DNA of 64,000 bases, taken from NCBI RefSeq assembly GCF_003334385.1, contig NZ_QOWN01000004.1; one strand, written 5' to 3'. How positions within the stretch are numbered: the first letter of the stretch is position 1; every line of letters starts with the position of its first letter. The position numbers were made by a program, and so were the translations under genes. Under the pieces are notes generated by a model, which saw nothing but the letters and a program-made list of their open reading frames with translations, was not told the origin of the DNA and searched no databases. The stretch comes from Escherichia coli (lineage in GTDB: Bacteria; Pseudomonadota; Gammaproteobacteria; Enterobacterales; Enterobacteriaceae). Positions 3,328-47,898 of the stretch are shown here, in pieces.

Positions 3328-3434
3328 ATGCCTGATGCCGATTCGTAGGCCGGATAAGGCGCTCGCGCCGCATCCGGCGGTGGTGCGCTGAAGCCTGATG
3401 CGACGCTTACCGCGTCTTATCATGCCTACTGGGA
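3328..3434. repeat. REP/BIME element
   Basis: gcctgatgcgacgc / ggccggataaggcg / gccgcatccggc motifs typical of E. coli REP palindromic units. Confidence 0.8.
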
Positions 3435-9565: not shown

Positions 9566-9690
9566 CTTAGCCTGATATAGTGTGCGTAGGCCGGATAAGG
9601 CGTTCACGCCGCATCCGGCATTTGAGCATAGTGCCTGATGCGACGCTTGATGCGTCTTATCAGGCCTACAGGTGCACCGCATCCGGCAAA
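9566..9690. repeat. REP/BIME element (two or more palindromic units)
   Basis: gcctgatatag...taggccggataaggcg...gccgcatccggca...gcctgatgcgacgc...tcttatcaggcctac between mpl and yjgA. Confidence 0.8.
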
Positions 9691-11892: not shown

Positions 11893-12282
<390 letters not shown>

Positions 12283-18725: not shown

Positions 18726-19673
18726 TCAGGACAGGGTGGCGGGGATGATGATTTGTTGCGGTTCGCTGCGCCCGGTTACCTGTGCGATCAATTGGCAGGC
18801 CGCCTGGCGTCCAGCTTCGGCGTAACCAGGATCTACGGTGACGATCTCCGGATGAAGGAATTTCATTAACGGCGTATTACCGACGCTCGCCAGTTGCAAG
18901 GTGTCGATGCGTTGCTCTTGCAGGTATTTACTTGCGCCAAGTGCCAGCGTGTCGGTTGCGCACAGTAAGGCGGTAGTTTCAGGCGTAATCACTTTTGCTA
19001 CGTTCTCATAGCCTTGCTTCATAGCAAGCCCTGGCAGAGCGGCAACGGGATGCAGTTTATGCGCTTTGCAGAACGCCAGGTAGGCTTCGTGACGTCGCTT
19101 ACCGGTCGTCACGTCACTGTGCGGCACGCCGAGATAACTGATATTACGATGCCCCTGGTCATAGAGCCGTTGCATCAGGATCTTGATTGCCCCTTCGTCG
19201 TCATAACAGACCGAAGCAAAGCCTTTTGCGTCACGCGCCAGCAGAACCAGCGATGACTGCCAGTGGGCTAACATTTCTTCTGTTATGCCGGTAAAACCGA
19301 ACAGCACTACGCCGTCGATATTACGCCGTTTTAGGATCCCCAAATGTTCGGCAACTAATTGCGGGGAAAACTGACTTTCCATCATGATTGGGTCGTAACC
19401 TTGTTCATAGAACGCTGGCAGCATGGTTTGAACGGCGAGATTTTCTGACAACGAATCCAGGCGGGTAACAATGATGGCGACCACTTTATCGCTTTGCCCA
19501 CGCATAGCGCGCGCAGAGCGGGAAGGGGAAAATCCATGCTGATTCATCACTGCTTCCACGCGCTCGCGCGTGCGCTGGCTCACGCCGCTTTCGTTATTCA
19601 GCACCCGGGAAACCGTAGATTTCCCCACGCCGCTTAAGCGCGCGATGTCTTTGATGGTCAGCCGATTTTGCAT
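18726..19673 (-). CDS. treR: Trehalose operon repressor (LacI family)
   Basis: 315-aa ORF with N-terminal HTH (MQNRLTIKDIARLSGVGKSTVSRVLNN). Confidence 0.9.
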   Translation of the reverse strand: MQNRLTIKDIARLSGVGKSTVSRVLNNESGVSQRTRERVEAVMNQHGFSPSRSARAMRGQSDKVVAIIVTRLDSLSENLAVQTMLPAFYEQGYDPIMMESQFSPQLVAEHLGILKRRNIDGVVLFGFTGITEEMLAHWQSSLVLLARDAKGFASVCYDDEGAIKILMQRLYDQGHRNISYLGVPHSDVTTGKRRHEAYLAFCKAHKLHPVAALPGLAMKQGYENVAKVITPETTALLCATDTLALGASKYLQEQRIDTLQLASVGNTPLMKFLHPEIVTVDPGYAEAGRQAACQLIAQVTGRSEPQQIIIPATLS

Positions 19674-19747
19674 CCTGTTGTCCCGTAACGTGTTGTTTAA
19701 TTATTTGAGGCTAACTTTACCCGTGCATTCAGCAATGGGTAAAGTCT

Positions 19748-19764
19748 GGTTTATCGTTGGTTTA
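19748..19764 (+). promoter_or_regulatory. PhoP box (GGTTTA-N5-GGTTTA) of the mgtA promoter
   Basis: Direct repeat ggtttatcgttggttta 13 nt upstream of a tattat -10 hexamer. Confidence 0.7.
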
Positions 19765-19857
19765 GTTGCCAGCAGGTATTATATCGCCATAAATGCTACG
19801 AATATTATTGGATTCTCCTTATTATTTGCGGCGCTTTTTTCACTTACCGGAGGTTAT

Positions 19858-19911
19858 ATGGAACCTGATCCCACGCCTCTCCCTCGACGGAGATTAAAAC
19901 TTTTTCGGTAA
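19858..19911 (+). CDS. mgtL: mgtA leader peptide MgtL
   Basis: 17-codon proline-rich [20 protein letters not shown] inside the mgtA 5' leader. Confidence 0.8.
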
Positions 19912-20051
19912 GCCCGTCTTTTCACGGCGTTACCGGATGCGTAAGGCCGTGACGTTTTAACGTCCCTGCTCAGCTTTATTACCTTCAGGTAAGGCTTCGC
20001 CACGCCTGAAGACATTTCTGTACTGTTTCAGACAGTGCGGAGGGACTCCTT

Positions 20052-22748
20052 ATGTTTAAAGAAATTTTTACCCGGCTCATTCGCCATTTACCTTCCCGTC
20101 TGGTTCATCGTGATCCATTGCCTGGCGCGCAGCAGACAGTGAATACGGTGGTCCCGCCGTCCTTAAGTGCGCATTGCCTGAAAATGGCGGTGATGCCCGA
20201 AGAAGAATTGTGGAAAACGTTCGACACCCATCCGGAAGGGTTAAATCAGGCGGAAGTGGAATCTGCCCGCGAACAACATGGTGAAAATAAATTACCCGCA
20301 CAACAACCGTCGCCGTGGTGGGTACATTTATGGGTCTGCTATCGCAACCCCTTTAATATTTTACTCACCATTCTCGGCGCTATTTCTTACGCCACGGAAG
20401 ATTTATTTGCCGCGGGCGTTATCGCGCTAATGGTCGCCATTTCTACGTTGCTGAACTTTATTCAGGAAGCACGTTCCACTAAAGCGGCAGATGCCCTGAA
20501 AGCGATGGTCAGCAATACTGCGACGGTGCTGCGCGTAATTAACGACAAAGGCGAAAATGGCTGGCTGGAGATCCCGATCGACCAGCTGGTGCCCGGCGAT
20601 ATTATAAAACTGGCGGCGGGAGATATGATCCCGGCAGATTTACGTATCTTGCAGGCGCGGGATCTGTTCGTCGCTCAGGCGTCGTTAACCGGTGAGTCTC
20701 TGCCCGTAGAAAAAGCCGCAACCACTCGCCAGCCGGAGCACAGCAATCCGCTGGAGTGCGACACCCTGTGTTTTATGGGCACCACCGTGGTGAGCGGCAC
20801 GGCACAAGCAATGGTGATTGCTACAGGTGCCAATACCTGGTTTGGTCAACTGGCGGGGCGTGTTAGTGAGCAGGAAAGCGAGCCGAATGCCTTTCAGCAA
20901 GGGATCAGCCGCGTCAGTATGCTGCTGATTCGCTTTATGCTGGTGATGGCACCGGTGGTGCTGTTAATCAATGGCTACACCAAAGGCGACTGGTGGGAAG
21001 CGGCGCTGTTTGCGCTTTCGGTCGCGGTAGGCCTAACGCCGGAAATGTTGCCGATGATTGTTACCTCGACGCTGGCGCGCGGCGCAGTAAAGCTGTCGAA
21101 ACAGAAAGTGATCGTCAAACATCTGGATGCTATTCAGAACTTTGGCGCAATGGATATTCTGTGCACTGATAAAACCGGCACCCTGACACAGGACAAAATT
21201 GTGCTGGAGAATCATACCGATATCTCCGGTAAAACCAGCGAACGCGTGCTGCATAGCGCGTGGTTGAACAGTCATTATCAGACCGGACTTAAAAACCTGC
21301 TCGATACAGCGGTGCTCGAAGGTACGGATGAAGAGTCAGCGCGCTCGCTGGCCAGCCGTTGGCAAAAAATTGATGAGATTCCGTTTGATTTCGAGCGTCG
21401 TCGGATGTCGGTGGTAGTGGCAGAAAATACCGAACACCATCAGCTGGTTTGCAAAGGTGCATTGCAGGAAATCCTCAATGTGTGTTCGCAGGTGCGTCAC
21501 AATGGCGAGATTGTGCCGCTCGATGACATCATGCTGCGTAAGATTAAGCGGGTTACTGATACGCTGAATCGTCAGGGGCTGCGCGTGGTTGCGGTGGCGA
21601 CGAAATACCTGCCAGCGCGTGAAGGAGATTACCAGCGGGCGGATGAATCCGACCTGATCCTCGAAGGATATATTGCTTTCCTTGATCCGCCAAAAGAGAC
21701 AACTGCTCCGGCACTGAAGGCATTAAAAGCGAGTGGAATTACCGTAAAAATCCTTACTGGCGACAGTGAGTTAGTTGCAGCGAAAGTGTGCCATGAAGTG
21801 GGGCTGGACGCGGGAGAGGTGGTCATTGGTAGTGATATTGAAACGCTATCTGACGACGAACTGGCTAATCTCGCACAGCGCACCACGCTGTTTGCTCGTC
21901 TGACGCCGATGCATAAAGAACGCATTGTGACCTTACTGAAGCGCGAAGGGCATGTGGTTGGCTTTATGGGCGATGGTATTAATGATGCGCCCGCCTTACG
22001 CGCTGCGGATATCGGCATTTCTGTGGACGGCGCGGTAGATATCGCCCGTGAAGCGGCTGATATCATCCTGCTGGAAAAAAGCCTGATGGTGCTGGAAGAG
22101 GGGGTTATTGAGGGACGTCGCACTTTCGCCAACATGCTGAAATACATCAAAATGACGGCGAGCTCTAACTTCGGTAATGTGTTCAGCGTGCTGGTGGCGA
22201 GTGCTTTCTTGCCCTTCCTGCCGATGTTGCCGTTACACTTGCTTATTCAGAACCTGCTGTACGATGTGTCACAGGTGGCGATCCCGTTTGATAACGTCGA
22301 CGACGAGCAAATTCAAAAGCCGCAGCGTTGGAATCCGGCGGATCTGGGGCGCTTTATGATCTTCTTCGGACCGATCAGCTCGATCTTCGATATTCTGACG
22401 TTTTGCCTGATGTGGTGGGTATTCCATGCCAACACGCCGGAAACGCAAACGCTGTTCCAGTCGGGATGGTTTGTGGTGGGCTTACTGTCGCAAACGCTGA
22501 TTGTGCATATGATCCGTACCCGCCGTGTGCCGTTTATTCAGAGCTGTGCATCGTGGCCGTTAATGATCATGACCGTGATCGTGATGATTGTCGGGATCGC
22601 ATTGCCGTTTTCACCGCTGGCCAGTTATCTGCAGCTGCAGGCGCTGCCGTTAAGCTATTTCCCGTGGCTGGTTGCGATTCTGGCAGGGTATATGACGTTA
22701 ACCCAGTTGGTGAAAGGGTTCTATAGCCGTCGTTACGGCTGGCAGTAA
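20052..22748 (+). CDS. mgtA: Mg2+-importing P-type ATPase
   Basis: 898-aa ORF with P-type ATPase motifs (DKTGTLT, GDGINDAPAL). Confidence 0.95.
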   Translation: MFKEIFTRLIRHLPSRLVHRDPLPGAQQTVNTVVPPSLSAHCLKMAVMPEEELWKTFDTHPEGLNQAEVESAREQHGENKLPAQQPSPWWVHLWVCYRNPFNILLTILGAISYATEDLFAAGVIALMVAISTLLNFIQEARSTKAADALKAMVSNTATVLRVINDKGENGWLEIPIDQLVPGDIIKLAAGDMIPADLRILQARDLFVAQASLTGESLPVEKAATTRQPEHSNPLECDTLCFMGTTVVSGTAQAMVIATGANTWFGQLAGRVSEQESEPNAFQQGISRVSMLLIRFMLVMAPVVLLINGYTKGDWWEAALFALSVAVGLTPEMLPMIVTSTLARGAVKLSKQKVIVKHLDAIQNFGAMDILCTDKTGTLTQDKIVLENHTDISGKTSERVLHSAWLNSHYQTGLKNLLDTAVLEGTDEESARSLASRWQKIDEIPFDFERRRMSVVVAENTEHHQLVCKGALQEILNVCSQVRHNGEIVPLDDIMLRKIKRVTDTLNRQGLRVVAVATKYLPAREGDYQRADESDLILEGYIAFLDPPKETTAPALKALKASGITVKILTGDSELVAAKVCHEVGLDAGEVVIGSDIETLSDDELANLAQRTTLFARLTPMHKERIVTLLKREGHVVGFMGDGINDAPALRAADIGISVDGAVDIAREAADIILLEKSLMVLEEGVIEGRRTFANMLKYIKMTASSNFGNVFSVLVASAFLPFLPMLPLHLLIQNLLYDVSQVAIPFDNVDDEQIQKPQRWNPADLGRFMIFFGPISSIFDILTFCLMWWVFHANTPETQTLFQSGWFVVGLLSQTLIVHMIRTRRVPFIQSCASWPLMIMTVIVMIVGIALPFSPLASYLQLQALPLSYFPWLVAILAGYMTLTQLVKGFYSRRYGWQ

Positions 22749-43666: not shown

Positions 43667-43751
43667 GCCGAAGTGGCGAAATCGGTAGACGCAGTTGATT
43701 CAAAATCAACCGTAGAAATACGTGCCGGTTCGAGTCCGGCCTTCGGCACCA
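43667..43751 (+). tRNA. leuX: tRNA-Leu (anticodon CAA)
   Basis: 85-nt sequence gccgaagtggcgaaatcggtagac...ggttcgagtccggccttcggcacca with anticodon loop ttgattCAAaatcaa and encoded CCA. Confidence 0.95.
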
Positions 43752-43764
43752 TCGGAGCATCAAT

Positions 43765-43788
43765 AGACGTCAACGGACGTCTTTTTTT
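43765..43788 (+). terminator. Intrinsic terminator after leuX
   Basis: Hairpin agacgtc-aacg-gacgtct followed by a T run. Confidence 0.75.
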
Positions 43789-43937
43789 GTGCCTGAAATC
43801 CAGTATTTACCCATCATTCCCGCTATATTAACTCTCTCAAGGTCAACCGACTTCAACGTACATCTACCAACAGATGTTGGTACAGATGATGGTATTTCCG
43901 GTTCGATAATGCTTGTACCAACAGGGAGGGGATAAGC

Positions 43938-45182
43938 ATGGCTCTAACAGATATCAAAGTCAGAACAGCTAAGCCAACAGATAAGCAATACAAGTTAACT
44001 GATGGCAGTGGTATGCATCTTCTTGTCCACCCTAATGGTTCTAAGTACTGGCGTTTGCAGTACCGTTTTGACGGCAAGCAAAAGATGCTGGCTTTAGGTG
44101 TTTATCCTGACGTGTCGCTTGCCGATGCACGGACTCGCCGTGACGACGCTCGTAATTTGTTGGCAAACAACATCGACCCGGGAGACAAAAAGAAAAGTGA
44201 TAAAATTGAGCAAGAAGAAGCCCGCACTTTTGAACAACTCGCAGTTGAGTGGCATGCAACAAATAAAAAGTGGTCGGAAGAACATAGCAGGCGAGTACTG
44301 AAAAGCCTGGAGGATAATCTGTTTCCAGCTATTGGTAAGCGGAATATTGCGGATCTCAAAACCCGAGACCTGCTAGCCCCAATCAAAGCCGTTGAACTGT
44401 CAGGACGGCTTGAGGTTGCTTCACGATTACAACAGCGAACCACGGCAATTATGCGCTATGCCGTGCAGAGTGGTTTACTGGACTATAACCCCGCGCAGGA
44501 GATGGTTGGCGCTGTTGCTTCAAGTAACAGACAGCATCGACCTGCTCTTCAGTTGAAGCGAATCCCAGAACTATTACGGCGCATAGATAGTTATACCGGT
44601 AGACCTCTTACTAGACTTGCCGTCGAACTCACGCTCCTGGTATTCATTCGTTCAAGTGAACTACGCTTTGCTCGTTGGTCTGAGATCGATTTCGAAACAT
44701 CAATGTGGACAATACCTGCAGAGCGCGAAGCTATTGACGGAGTAAAGCATTCACAGCGTGGTTCAAAAATGCGTACGCCTCATCTGGTGCCGCTTTCTCA
44801 TCAAGCTTTAGCAATTCTTAAAGATGTTTACAAACTTAGTGGTGATCGCGATTTTGTTTTCATCGGCGATCATGACCATCGCAAACCGATGAGTGAAAAC
44901 ACGGTGAACAAGGCGCTGCGCGTTATGGGTTATGACACGAAGGTAGAGGTTTGTGGGCACGGTTTCAGGACAATGGCCTGTAGTTCATTGATCGAGTCTG
45001 GATTGTGGTCGAGGGATGCAGTGGAAAGGCAGATGAGCCATATGGAACGTAACTCAGTACGCGCAGCTTACATTCATAAGGCCGAACATCTTGATGAACG
45101 GCGACTGATGCTGCAGTGGTGGGCTGATTTTTTGGATGCGAATAGGGAAAGCGAAGTTAGCCCTTATGACTTTGGCAAATAG
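43938..45182 (+). CDS. P4-type tyrosine integrase
   Basis: 414-aa ORF with C-terminal tyrosine-recombinase motifs (HGFRTMACS, RAAYIHK); good RBS gggagggg; adjacent to the tRNA 3' end. Confidence 0.9.
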   Translation: MALTDIKVRTAKPTDKQYKLTDGSGMHLLVHPNGSKYWRLQYRFDGKQKMLALGVYPDVSLADARTRRDDARNLLANNIDPGDKKKSDKIEQEEARTFEQLAVEWHATNKKWSEEHSRRVLKSLEDNLFPAIGKRNIADLKTRDLLAPIKAVELSGRLEVASRLQQRTTAIMRYAVQSGLLDYNPAQEMVGAVASSNRQHRPALQLKRIPELLRRIDSYTGRPLTRLAVELTLLVFIRSSELRFARWSEIDFETSMWTIPAEREAIDGVKHSQRGSKMRTPHLVPLSHQALAILKDVYKLSGDRDFVFIGDHDHRKPMSENTVNKALRVMGYDTKVEVCGHGFRTMACSSLIESGLWSRDAVERQMSHMERNSVRAAYIHKAEHLDERRLMLQWWADFLDANRESEVSPYDFGK

Positions 45183-45284
45183 TCTAATTCCTGATGCTTG
45201 CTATGTTCGATTTTGAAAAGCCGGCTTGAACTATAACCTATACTTTTTTATAACTGTATTATTCTGGCGACTCAGAGGTGCACT

Positions 45285-45518
45285 ATGAAAACTTTCGATA
45301 CTCAACTTGCGATGAGCATTGTATCGCACTCAACGGGAGGTTTTAGTTATGACACCCTAGCTAGAGCGTTGATTTCTAAAGATAAAAATGAAAATCCTGA
45401 CGACCTTCTTGAGTCGTGTCGAAATTTTTGTCTCTCTCTTGAGGAAAAAGGTATTCTGAGGCGATGCCAAAGATGTTCTCATTCTCAAGATGAGTATTTC
45501 GAGTATATTCCTCACTAA
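45285..45518 (+). CDS. Hypothetical small protein (77 aa) with CxxC pair
   Basis: AT-rich ORF with RBS (cagagg) and RRCQRCSHS near the C-terminus; followed by a perfect palindrome; no recognisable family. Confidence 0.4.
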   Translation: MKTFDTQLAMSIVSHSTGGFSYDTLARALISKDKNENPDDLLESCRNFCLSLEEKGILRRCQRCSHSQDEYFEYIPH

Positions 45519-45519
45519 C

Positions 45520-45551
45520 ATCAGTCCCTGAAAAAATTTTCAGGGACTGAT
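45520..45551. terminator. Perfect 14-bp-arm palindrome (possible bidirectional terminator or protein binding site)
   Basis: atcagtccctgaaaa-aa-ttttcagggactgat immediately after the 77-aa ORF stop. Confidence 0.5.
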
Positions 45552-45617
45552 TACTCCGCTCTTGTCATCCCCTTTTTTCTCCTGTAGCTTGTGTAACACG
45601 ATTCTGGGGGGGCGATT

Positions 45618-46574
45618 GTGAGCAACATCAACTTAATAACCACATGTACAAACGGCAAACACTACGGTAGTAGGGATATATTGAGTCTGAGTCAATTTTC
45701 ATCAGGCCGAACCCCTTCAAATGTGCTCGTGAATTCTTGGTGCAATGCTCTGAATGAAGCTATTTCTACATCTGCAACTATATGTGCAGAGGATCTTTAT
45801 AAAGGTGGGCACTGGGCGACGGCTAAAGCCATCTTAGATGATTATCCTATTGATTTATGGATTCTTTCTGCTGGTTTAGGACTCCTTCACCACAAAGACA
45901 ATGTTGTACCTTATAAAGCGACCTTTGCTGTTGGATATGACGAATCAATACCATTATATTCTCAAGAATATGTAGGGAAAAGTTTTCATAGAACATGGTG
46001 GAAAGAAATAACCAATAGATCTATTTTTAAATCTAAGCATCCTACATCTATTGTAGAATTAATGAAAAAAAGAAAAAGAGACTATTATATTATCTGTGGT
46101 TCTCCAGATTATATTAATGCAATTGAACTAGATATCATTAATGGTCTTGAGTATCTAGTTGATGCAAAAAAACAACTGCTTATTATAACTTCCAAAAAAA
46201 TCAATGGTAGGTTAACTACATACCTTTTCAAAACCAACCAAAATATGGCTCAGTGGCTGAGATGCAATATGCTCATGCTTAATATCAGTGTGGCAAAATA
46301 CATTGTGAAGGAATTTACGTCAAAACAACTCAATGATTTAAATGAGTTATCTCAAAAGTTAATAGAAGAACTCAAGGAGTTACCTGAGCGTGAAGTGAAA
46401 AAAGGAATTCGTCGTAGTCCGGAGGAAGTTAAGTCTTTCATTTTAAAGATTATGGAGAAAAATCCTGGTATCAGTGCTACACACGCGTTGCGTGAATTTC
46501 GTGACTCGGGAAATTCATTTGAGGAAAAACGTTTTCGGACTGAGTTTATGGCCCTGAGAGAGGCTAAACCTTAA
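45618..46574 (+). CDS. Hypothetical protein (318 aa), first gene of the putative modification module; possibly DpdC-like by context only
   Basis: AT-rich ORF with GTG start and G-rich RBS; no motif I can assign; sits directly upstream of the TGT-like gene. Confidence 0.5.
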   Translation: MSNINLITTCTNGKHYGSRDILSLSQFSSGRTPSNVLVNSWCNALNEAISTSATICAEDLYKGGHWATAKAILDDYPIDLWILSAGLGLLHHKDNVVPYKATFAVGYDESIPLYSQEYVGKSFHRTWWKEITNRSIFKSKHPTSIVELMKKRKRDYYIICGSPDYINAIELDIINGLEYLVDAKKQLLIITSKKINGRLTTYLFKTNQNMAQWLRCNMLMLNISVAKYIVKEFTSKQLNDLNELSQKLIEELKELPEREVKKGIRRSPEEVKSFILKIMEKNPGISATHALREFRDSGNSFEEKRFRTEFMALREAKP

Positions 46575-46626
46575 TGCTACTTGCCTGGGTTTCATGGTAG
46601 AATCCCCCGTTTTTTGAGGCTTTGCA

Positions 46627-47898
46627 GTGGCGTCACAGGAGAGTAAGTTGTCGAAGCTAAAGTATTTTTTCCCTGATAGTCAGGATTTTATCGATCCCAG
46701 TTTCGACTTCTTCCGCGAAACGCGTAACGAACATCGCGTGCGTCAACGTGACGATCAGTATCCGCATGAGGTTTTTCCTCATCCTTACGATGGTATGCTG
46801 GTTTCTAAAGCTGTAGTTGATGGTCTTGGCGGCGGCGAGAGCAAATATACTCGTGCCCAGCGTTTGCGTTACTTCCGTAATGGAATGAAGCACTTTTTCC
46901 GTCTGCCGGAAAATATGGAAACTATGGGTGATTGCGGAGCCTTCACATATGTTAATCAGGACGTCCCGCCATACCGTGTGGAAGAGGTGATTGAGTTTTA
47001 CGAAACTTCCCGCTTTAACCATGGCGTTTCTCTCGATCATATCGTTTTTGGCTATGAAAAACCTGGTGAGGTATTCAGTGGCGAAGTGTTGGCTGAATGT
47101 CGCCGACGCCAGGATATCACTCTGACCTTGGCTCAAGAGTTTTTAAACAAGTCTCAAAAGTCCTGTTTCACTCCCTTTGGCGTTGCACATGGATGGAGCA
47201 AAACCTCCTATCGTCAGTCTGTAGAGGCCCTGCTGGCCATGGGATACAGAAATATCACCATGGGGGGGATGGTGCCGTTGAAAACGGCGCAGATCCTTGA
47301 GACTCTCGAAGAGATTAAACCGCTGCTGAAAAGTGATACACGTATTCACTTGCTTGGCATTGCCCGTCCAGAGAGTTTCGCCGACTTTATCAAGTTTGGT
47401 GTGACCAGTATTGACTCGACAACACCGCTGCAGCAAGCCTTCAAAGATCGGAAAAACAACTATCATACGCCTGATGGCCCGGCCTATACCGCTGTGCGTG
47501 TCCCTCAGTTTGATGCGAATCCAAGTTTGAGTCGCAAAATAAAATCTGGCGTGATTGATCAGGATATTGCACGACATCTAGAAAAGGATGCCATGGCTGC
47601 CCTGTTTGAATATGATAAAGGGGCTTTGTCACTTGAGAAGACTCTTGATGCAGTCCTGGCATATGAACGCCTCCATTCGGGTGAAAAAGAGGCCGATAAA
47701 ATCCGTGCGGATTATGAACGTACGCTAGGAGAACGTCCTTGGAACCAATGCCAGTGCAATATTTGCCAGGCCATCGGTATCAACGTCATCATTTTCCGCG
47801 GAGCAGAACGTAACCGTCGCCGCGGTTTCCATAATATTCAGGTGTTGTACAACCGTTTACAGCACACATTGTCATTACGCTCAGAGGAACTGTCATGA
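46627..47898 (+). CDS. dpdA: tRNA-guanine-transglycosylase-like protein (DpdA-like DNA 7-deazaguanine transglycosylase candidate)
   Basis: 423-aa ORF, GTG start with gagg RBS; C-terminal zinc motif CQCNIC followed 22 residues later by His (TGT-type CxCxxC...H); DCGAF and DSTTP segments. Confidence 0.65.
   Translation: MASQESKLSKLKYFFPDSQDFIDPSFDFFRETRNEHRVRQRDDQYPHEVFPHPYDGMLVSKAVVDGLGGGESKYTRAQRLRYFRNGMKHFFRLPENMETMGDCGAFTYVNQDVPPYRVEEVIEFYETSRFNHGVSLDHIVFGYEKPGEVFSGEVLAECRRRQDITLTLAQEFLNKSQKSCFTPFGVAHGWSKTSYRQSVEALLAMGYRNITMGGMVPLKTAQILETLEEIKPLLKSDTRIHLLGIARPESFADFIKFGVTSIDSTTPLQQAFKDRKNNYHTPDGPAYTAVRVPQFDANPSLSRKIKSGVIDQDIARHLEKDAMAALFEYDKGALSLEKTLDAVLAYERLHSGEKEADKIRADYERTLGERPWNQCQCNICQAIGINVIIFRGAERNRRRGFHNIQVLYNRLQHTLSLRSEELS

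Follow-up and report, generated by a model that had tools for sequence, protein, structure and literature searches.

The mgtA locus and its surroundings

The window analysed in this study comprises 64,000 nucleotides of the Escherichia coli contig NZ_QOWN01000004.1 (assembly GCF_003334385.1). Its positions 19748-20051 lie directly upstream of mgtA, which encodes a Mg2+-importing P-type ATPase. The order of treB-treR and mgtL-mgtA is the same as in K-12 MG1655, in which treB and treR are encoded on the minus strand and mgtL (b4702) and mgtA (b4242) on the plus strand, followed by ridA-pyrI-pyrB. All 898 of the 898 residues of MgtA are identical to those of the K-12 protein, and TreR agrees with its K-12 counterpart at 313 out of 315 residues. 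The 378-bp treR-mgtA intergenic region was found in each of 5426 out of 5426 complete E. coli genomes, always on the chromosome. Under the intergenic match, E. coli genomes carry the RefSeq annotation 'mgtA regulatory leader peptide MgtL'.

Rfam models were run against the entire window and gave a match to RF01056 (Magnesium-II, mgtA Mg2+-responsive element) at 19843-19958 with a score of 121.9 bits (gathering score 40, E = 4.9e-24). The match covers positions 1-115 of the 115 model positions, i.e. the full model. Its end is 94 nt away from the ATG of mgtA at 20052, which places it in the mgtA 5' leader. The original prediction had assigned the known mgtA regulatory architecture to this interval. 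Every element named there was found where it had been placed, and the last base of the interval is the last base of the leader. Sequence comparison identifies 19748-20051 as the K-12 mgtA promoter and leader, belonging to the Salmonella-type family of mgtA leaders (RF01056). This is almost certainly the native region that regulates mgtA in E. coli, with control exerted at two levels. The mgtA promoter and leader are an already known element, and in this window they are ordinary. The features of the region are compiled in Table 1.

Table 1. Features of the mgtA regulatory region and substitutions relative to K-12 (window coordinates).
Feature	Position	Strand	Basis and remarks
PhoP box GGTTTATCGTTGGTTTA, direct repeat GGTTTA-TCGTT-GGTTTA	19748..19764	+	Sequence match
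-10 hexamer TATTAT	19777..19782	+	12 nt (19765-19776) after the PhoP box
mgtA 5' leader, about 263 nt	19789..20051	+	Probable start A19789 (+/- 2 nt), from the Salmonella offset
Predicted stem-loop A, repressing conformation, encloses mgtL	19843..19912	+	Outer helix 19843-19853 with 19902-19912; Rfam consensus
Shine-Dalgarno sequence GGAGG of mgtL	19849..19853	+	Sequence; inside the 5' arm of stem A
mgtL leader ORF, 17 codons plus stop	19858..19911	+	Translation; same peptide as K-12 b4702; RefSeq annotation
Predicted inner hairpins of stem-loop A	19859-61/19871-73 and 19878-82/19889-93	+	Rfam consensus structure
Predicted alternative stem-loop C, read-through conformation	19904..19937	+	19904-11 with 19930-37, 19914-17 with 19924-27
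Predicted stem-loop B, repressing conformation, 10 bp	19924..19950	+	19924-33 with 19941-50; Rfam structure
Predicted distal hairpin 1, small, GACGU-UUUA-ACGUC, after stem B	19951..19964	+	96.4% paired, 2 pairs compensatory
Predicted distal hairpin 2, CUUCAGG...CCUGAAG	19983..20011	+	5 of 11 pairs compensatory
Predicted distal hairpin 3, directly 5' of the mgtA ribosome-binding site	20018..20040	+	6 of 10 pairs compensatory, 92.1% paired
Shine-Dalgarno sequence GGAGGG of mgtA	20039..20044	+	Sequence; GGAGGGAC nearly invariant among orthologues
mgtA, Mg2+-importing P-type ATPase, 898 aa, regulated gene	20052..22748	+	ORF
Substitutions vs K-12, 5' of the PhoP box	19684, 19710, 19716		Gap-free alignment
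Substitution vs K-12, spacer between PhoP box and -10	19769		Gap-free alignment
Substitution vs K-12, about +4 of the transcript	19792		Gap-free alignment
SNP vs K-12 (C to T), mgtL Phe16 TTC to TTT, synonymous	19905..19905	+	In stems A and C

Several features outside the mgtA region were also recorded. The tRNA-Leu(CAA) gene leuX (43667-43751) is followed by an integrase reading frame (43938-45182) and a dpd gene cluster, and the whole region extends over 43667-59630. The matches to DpdC, DpdA, DpdB, DpdE, DpdF, DpdG, DpdH and DpdI, which form a 7-deazaguanine DNA-modification defence system, were all strong in PADLOC, and all but DpdC were above the NCBIfam equivalog cut-offs. Since the match to E. 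coli strain E2865 stops right after the tRNA, the region appears to be an island inserted at leuX. The intergenic region upstream of mgtA is 100% identical in E2865, and identity elsewhere amounts to 97.6-99.1%. In E2865, the IS66-family element ISEc22 splits cybC (around window position 11975) and IS621 is located just 3' of mgtA (around 22870); the window carries neither. The treR gene of E2865 is flagged as a pseudogene by RefSeq, and the treR reading frame of the window is of full length.

Rfam furthermore reported a full-length match to Ysr276, a Yersinia antisense sRNA family, at 37500-37694 on the plus strand (175 bits). Coordinate transfer from E2865 places the match antisense to the coding sequence of pepA. 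Its source is probably the conserved coding sequence and not an sRNA gene. Four matches to naRNA4, a REP/BIME-type repeat, were found at 3348-3426, 9589-9666, 36495-36570 and 36591-36666. Coordinate transfer assigns the last two (about 36.5 kb) to the stretch separating holC from pepA.

Promoter and leader RNA

The original prediction of a PhoP box of the form GGTTTA-N5-GGTTTA followed by a tattat hexamer at -10 was borne out for both elements. The pattern KGTTTA-N5-KGTTTA matched only once on the two strands of the 64-kb window, whereas 0.04 matches were expected from shuffled sequences. The box is single, directly oriented, located 12 nt before the -10 hexamer and placed over the -35 position. 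This is the arrangement of 'architecture I' (class II), which was described for the Salmonella mgtA promoter with one direct PhoP box 12 nt before the -10 and overlapping the -35 (Zwir et al. 2012, PMC3335776). The Salmonella promoter behaves as class II since the alpha-CTD of RNA polymerase is dispensable (PMC3335776). The box of S. flexneri mgtA, tGGTTTAtcgttGGTTTAg, is identical to that of the window, and an S. flexneri mgtA promoter fragment with this identical box was shifted by PhoP-P in EMSA (PMC5775216). From published work on K-12 and Salmonella, the box of the window is expected to be bound by PhoP-P and to mediate activation.

In Salmonella, +1 of mgtA is located 7 nt after the -10, resulting in a leader of 264 nt (PMC3335776). 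When this distance is applied in the alignment, homology to the promoter mapped in Salmonella suggests A19789 as the start of the window leader, which would then comprise 263 nt. A leader of about 270 nt had been proposed originally. The long leader was recovered, but its length by homology is somewhat shorter.

A PhoP box was recognisable in 25 out of 28 orthologous regions. In Klebsiella indica, Citrobacter amalonaticus and Yokenella regensburgei no recognisable box was present in the 135 nt before mgtL, although mgtL and the leader helices are retained in all three. The sequence 5' of mgtL looks replaced in two of them, K. indica and C. amalonaticus. Promoter rewiring or rearrangement may account for these boxless orthologues.

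The leader contains the proline-rich reading frame of 17 codons that had been predicted as mgtL, from the ATG at 19858 to the TAA at 19909-19911. The encoded peptide contains four prolines, is identical to K-12 MgtL and begins with MEPDPTP, i.e. it is proline- and acid-rich. It thus combines the sequence characteristics of MgtL, namely a Shine-Dalgarno sequence of its own, the Pro/acidic N-terminus (EPDP) and a stop codon inside the 3' arm of stem A (19902-19912). Among the 28 orthologues, the ACCGGAG at the mgtL Shine-Dalgarno sequence is invariant, the reading frame comprises 17 codons in all but one, and the stop codon is always situated in the CGGUAAG of the stem A 3' arm. Third codon positions vary, which is a coding-like pattern. 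The pattern used to search for orthologues specified positions one and two in most of the ten initial mgtL codons (30 bases), so that the invariance in the 5' half of mgtL is ascertainment and not evidence, while the rest was free to vary. Translation of mgtL in MG1655 and its effect on read-through into mgtA were established by reporters and toeprints (PMC11282234). By analogy to this published work on K-12 and to that on Salmonella, mgtL is probably translated in the strain of the window as well.

For the comparative data, each species was represented by a single genome, and a pattern scan of these genomes resulted in 33 loci. These were 31 enterobacterial orthologues and 2 chance matches in GC-rich coding sequences of Telmatospirillum and Flavonifractor, which were dropped. 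The loci L012, L016 and L023 (Phytobacter, and Kosakonia sp. S29) were left out, L012 because it is incomplete and the other two because no mgtA start is present in the extracted stretch. L021 and L027, which are near-duplicates of L020, were left out as well. The alignment of 28 sequences covers Escherichia, Salmonella, Citrobacter, Klebsiella, Raoultella, Leclercia, Yokenella, Kosakonia and other genera.

When the Rfam structure extended by the three distal hairpins was imposed on the 28 orthologues, 93.4% of the cells were paired compared to 39-44% with the 3' partners slid. The number of compensatory pairs was 19 versus 13.4 +/- 1.5 in shuffles, and 0 out of 500 shuffles reached the observed value. 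Stem A (-18.7 kcal/mol) is almost invariant with 97.7% of the cells paired. In stem B, 96.4% of the cells are paired and 5 out of 10 pairs are compensatory. Stem C, for which -15.7 kcal/mol were calculated with the 5' arm of A and the 3' arm of B withheld, is paired in 92.8% of the cells compared to 15-48% when slid. Stem C draws one strand from each of the other two stems, the 3' arm from A and the 5' arm from B, and therefore excludes both. A/B on the one hand and C on the other have strands in common and are of comparable energy, as in the mutually exclusive folds of RF01056. Conservation and covariation across the 28 orthologues support A, B, C and the three distal hairpins. The minimum free energy calculated for the entire putative leader was -84 kcal/mol (z = -3.8), which was better than that of all 200 dinucleotide shuffles.

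A further, long-range helix was considered. The sequence GUCCCU (19962-19967), which is nearly invariant, located just after stem B and overlapping the 3' arm of the small hairpin 19951-19964, is complementary to AGGGAC (20041-20046), the core of the mgtA Shine-Dalgarno sequence. This helix is 97% pairable in the 28 orthologues, yet it displayed no covariation and did not differ from shuffles. It is therefore recorded as a passing observation, and masking of the Shine-Dalgarno sequence as a hypothesis.

Motifs of this kind may also resemble known elements by chance in an ordinary intergenic region. A generic sigma-70 scan of 19600-20200, which found no canonical promoter, would be in agreement with this explanation, but such a call is not to be expected because the PhoP box takes the place of the -35 hexamer. 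The E-value of the covariance model, the low expectation for the PhoP box, synteny with and near-identity to the characterised K-12 locus, and covariation across genera all argue against it, which renders the probability of a mere chance resemblance negligible. With a unique PhoP box, a full-length match to RF01056 and a leader fold that surpasses its shuffles, the observation is real and far beyond chance.

Differences from K-12 and the C19905T polymorphism

Alignment to K-12, which had been suggested as a check of the original prediction, revealed 372 identical positions and six substitutions in the 378 bp without any indel, and both MgtL and MgtA are identical. Three of the substitutions (19769, 19792 and 19905) lie inside 19748-20051. 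The description of the region as intact thus holds for every known functional element but not base for base, as one of the SNPs affects a base pair in the regulatory stems. At 19792, the A of the window is shared by the other six Escherichia rows of the alignment, and G was found in K-12 alone.

The SNP C19905T converts the stem A pair G19850-C to G-U and the stem C pair C-G19936 to U-G. It costs 2.9 kcal/mol in each helix, changing A from -21.6 to -18.7 and C from -18.6 to -15.7 kcal/mol. Since the cost is equal in A and C, the thermodynamic balance of the two states remains unchanged. The allele was found in 485 out of 5426 complete E. coli genomes (about 9%) from many hosts. This count was obtained with a 55-nt query centred on the SNP, a length at which megablast cannot seed without the variant base. 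Among the 28 orthologues the G-U at the 19850/19905 pair is confined to the window, and C19905T is present in 0 out of the 27 others.

Most likely C19905T is a neutral lineage polymorphism. It may have a kinetic effect on co-transcriptional folding. A more far-reaching proposal is that C19905T shifts the kinetics or the set-point of the Mg2+/proline switch in its lineage and that, separately, GUCCCU masks the mgtA Shine-Dalgarno sequence as an additional translational layer; we consider this proposal improbable. C19905T was a detail new to us.

Control of transcription into mgtA

The sequence elements and the alternative helices are present in the window, intact, conserved and located at the positions given in Table 1. 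Binding of PhoP, the start of transcription, translation of mgtL, the response to Mg2+ and proline and the factor involved in termination would correspond to those in published work on K-12 and Salmonella. PhoQ/PhoP is activated at low periplasmic Mg2+ (PMC11552253, PMC3335776). Upon sensing of this condition by PhoQ, PhoP would be phosphorylated and bind to the direct repeat in the promoter. From its place at the -35 position, 12 nt before TATTAT, it would recruit RNA polymerase as a class II activator, and transcription would begin near 19789. The resulting leader of about 263 nt would then fold in two mutually exclusive ways.

An mgtL-dependent leader model with A+B versus C has been described for E. 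coli (PMC11552253; PMC11282234; review PMC12360218). If cytoplasmic Mg2+ and proline are sufficient, the ribosome would reach the mgtL stop codon and stem-loops A and B would form. This state probably leads to a premature end in the distal leader, around 20003 as judged from K-12 Term-seq, and mgtA would be off. At low Mg2+, under proline limitation or without the help of EF-P/EttA, the ribosome would stall or drop off early in mgtL, at its EPDP/proline-rich start. Pairing of the 3' arm of A with the 5' arm of B would then give stem C, and the polymerase would read into mgtA. A response of mgtA expression to cytoplasmic Mg2+ was reported for both K-12 and Salmonella (PMC11552253, PMC11282234).

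Whether Mg2+ is sensed directly or through mgtL is debated (PMC11552253). The leader could chiefly be a direct Mg2+-sensing riboswitch in which Mg2+ acting on the RNA stabilises A+B and translation of mgtL is secondary. This would fit the classification of the element as a riboswitch aptamer by Rfam and, according to one report, Mg2+-dependent folding alone was enough to modulate Rho termination at Salmonella mgtA in vitro (PMC11552253). The sensing mode has also been called 'still not fully understood' (PMC11552253). However, the upstream reading frame keeps its length of 17 codons (27 out of 28 orthologues) and its Pro/acidic N-terminus while third positions vary, mutation of Glu2 and Asp4 in E. 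coli MgtL abolished expression of an mgtA reporter, and EttA acts via mgtL translation (PMC11282234). Recent reviews likewise put the effect of Mg2+ down to translation of the upstream reading frame (PMC12360218). A leader that works chiefly by direct sensing is therefore rather unlikely in our view, and sensing through mgtL translation is the preferred reading. The two modes are not mutually exclusive.

The site of premature termination can be approached from K-12 data. In the Term-seq supplement of Adams et al. 2021, the K-12 3' end 4467576, located 49 nt before mgtA, is listed as Rho-dependent ('Yes', score 1.56) and as 'riboswitch'. Transfer via the gap-free alignment places it at window position 20003, about +215, inside the hairpin 19983-20011. 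The same supplement classes the K-12 3' end 4467490 as the 'primary' 3' end of mgtL (Adams et al. 2021). It corresponds to window position 19917, five bases after stem-loop A and directly before a CUUUU run. No canonical intrinsic terminator is present at 19917, and this end might stem from pausing, from processing or from a stable fragment that contains mgtL. In a scan for rut-like C>G composition, C/G reached 2.1 only in 19864-19923 and about 1.5 in 19954-20013; these are modest bubbles.

Rho dependence was demonstrated for the Salmonella mgtA leader and is disputed for E. coli (PMC12360218, PMC5499598). Instead of Rho, Rho-independent termination or pausing, or cleavage by RNase E, might give rise to the premature 3' ends of the off state in E. 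coli. ChIP-qPCR with Rho R66S resulted in a Rho termination score of 1.0 for E. coli mgtA despite a drop of RNA polymerase occupancy along the gene (PMC5499598), and a 2025 review cautions that the Rho step 'may not be conserved in E. coli' (PMC12360218). RNase E targeting of the Salmonella mgtA transcript, as cited in PMC11552253, and the second K-12 3' end just after stem-loop A point in the same direction. On the other hand, the scan of 19600-20200 found no intrinsic-terminator-like site consisting of hairpin and U-tract, and the end 49 nt before mgtA was flagged as Rho-dependent by Term-seq. The authors of the ChIP study themselves pointed out that termination may persist at some sites in R66S, perhaps including this one (PMC5499598). 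In addition, all helices of the window leader very closely resemble those of the Salmonella leader. An off state reached without Rho is considered unlikely.

The K-12 mgtL-mgtA leader with the mgtA P1 promoter represents the same locus with the same flanks (treR 5' and ridA-pyrBI 3'), PhoP box, -10 hexamer, MgtL and MgtA, and differs by the six substitutions only. The Salmonella enterica mgtA leader, a Mg2+/proline-sensing Rho-dependent attenuator of family RF01056, likewise has 12 nt between box and -10, a leader of about 264 nt and a 17-codon Pro-rich upstream reading frame with its stop in the 3' arm of stem A. Its A, B, C and distal hairpins are alignable to those of the window. It differs in the leader peptide, which is MDPEPTPLPRWRVFLFR in S. 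arizonae, and in the -10 hexamer, which is TATGAT in Salmonella and TATTAT in the window.

The corA/corL leader of E. coli and Salmonella is similar in design, with an upstream reading frame in stem A, an off state of A+B with exposed rut and an on state formed by an alternative stem (PMC11552253). Termination at corA takes place near +211 to +220 (PMC11552253), which compares to about +215 for the K-12 mgtA 3' end projected onto the window. In contrast to mgtA, corA has a constitutive promoter that is not PhoP-dependent, and corL contains a single proline and starts with UUG (PMC11552253). The two leaders are unrelated in sequence and differ in their Rfam status. We know of no mgtCBR-type locus in E. 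coli. In Salmonella, the mgtCBR leader with the upstream reading frames mgtM and mgtP resembles the mgtA leader in being PhoP-activated and long and in controlling elongation into a Mg2+-transporter operon by short Pro-rich reading frames (PMC3641672). It differs by two tandem attenuators and by its sequence.

As a discovery the mgtA leader matters little, and mgtL is already annotated by RefSeq. The locus is a textbook case of control at two levels, in which a two-component system governs the promoter and an upstream reading frame/RNA switch governs elongation. The value of this analysis is that the locus was found intact in this strain, that exact coordinates are now available for each functional part, and that a natural variant was recorded. 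C19905T could provide a ready-made allele for studying how the relative stability of A and C sets the switch.
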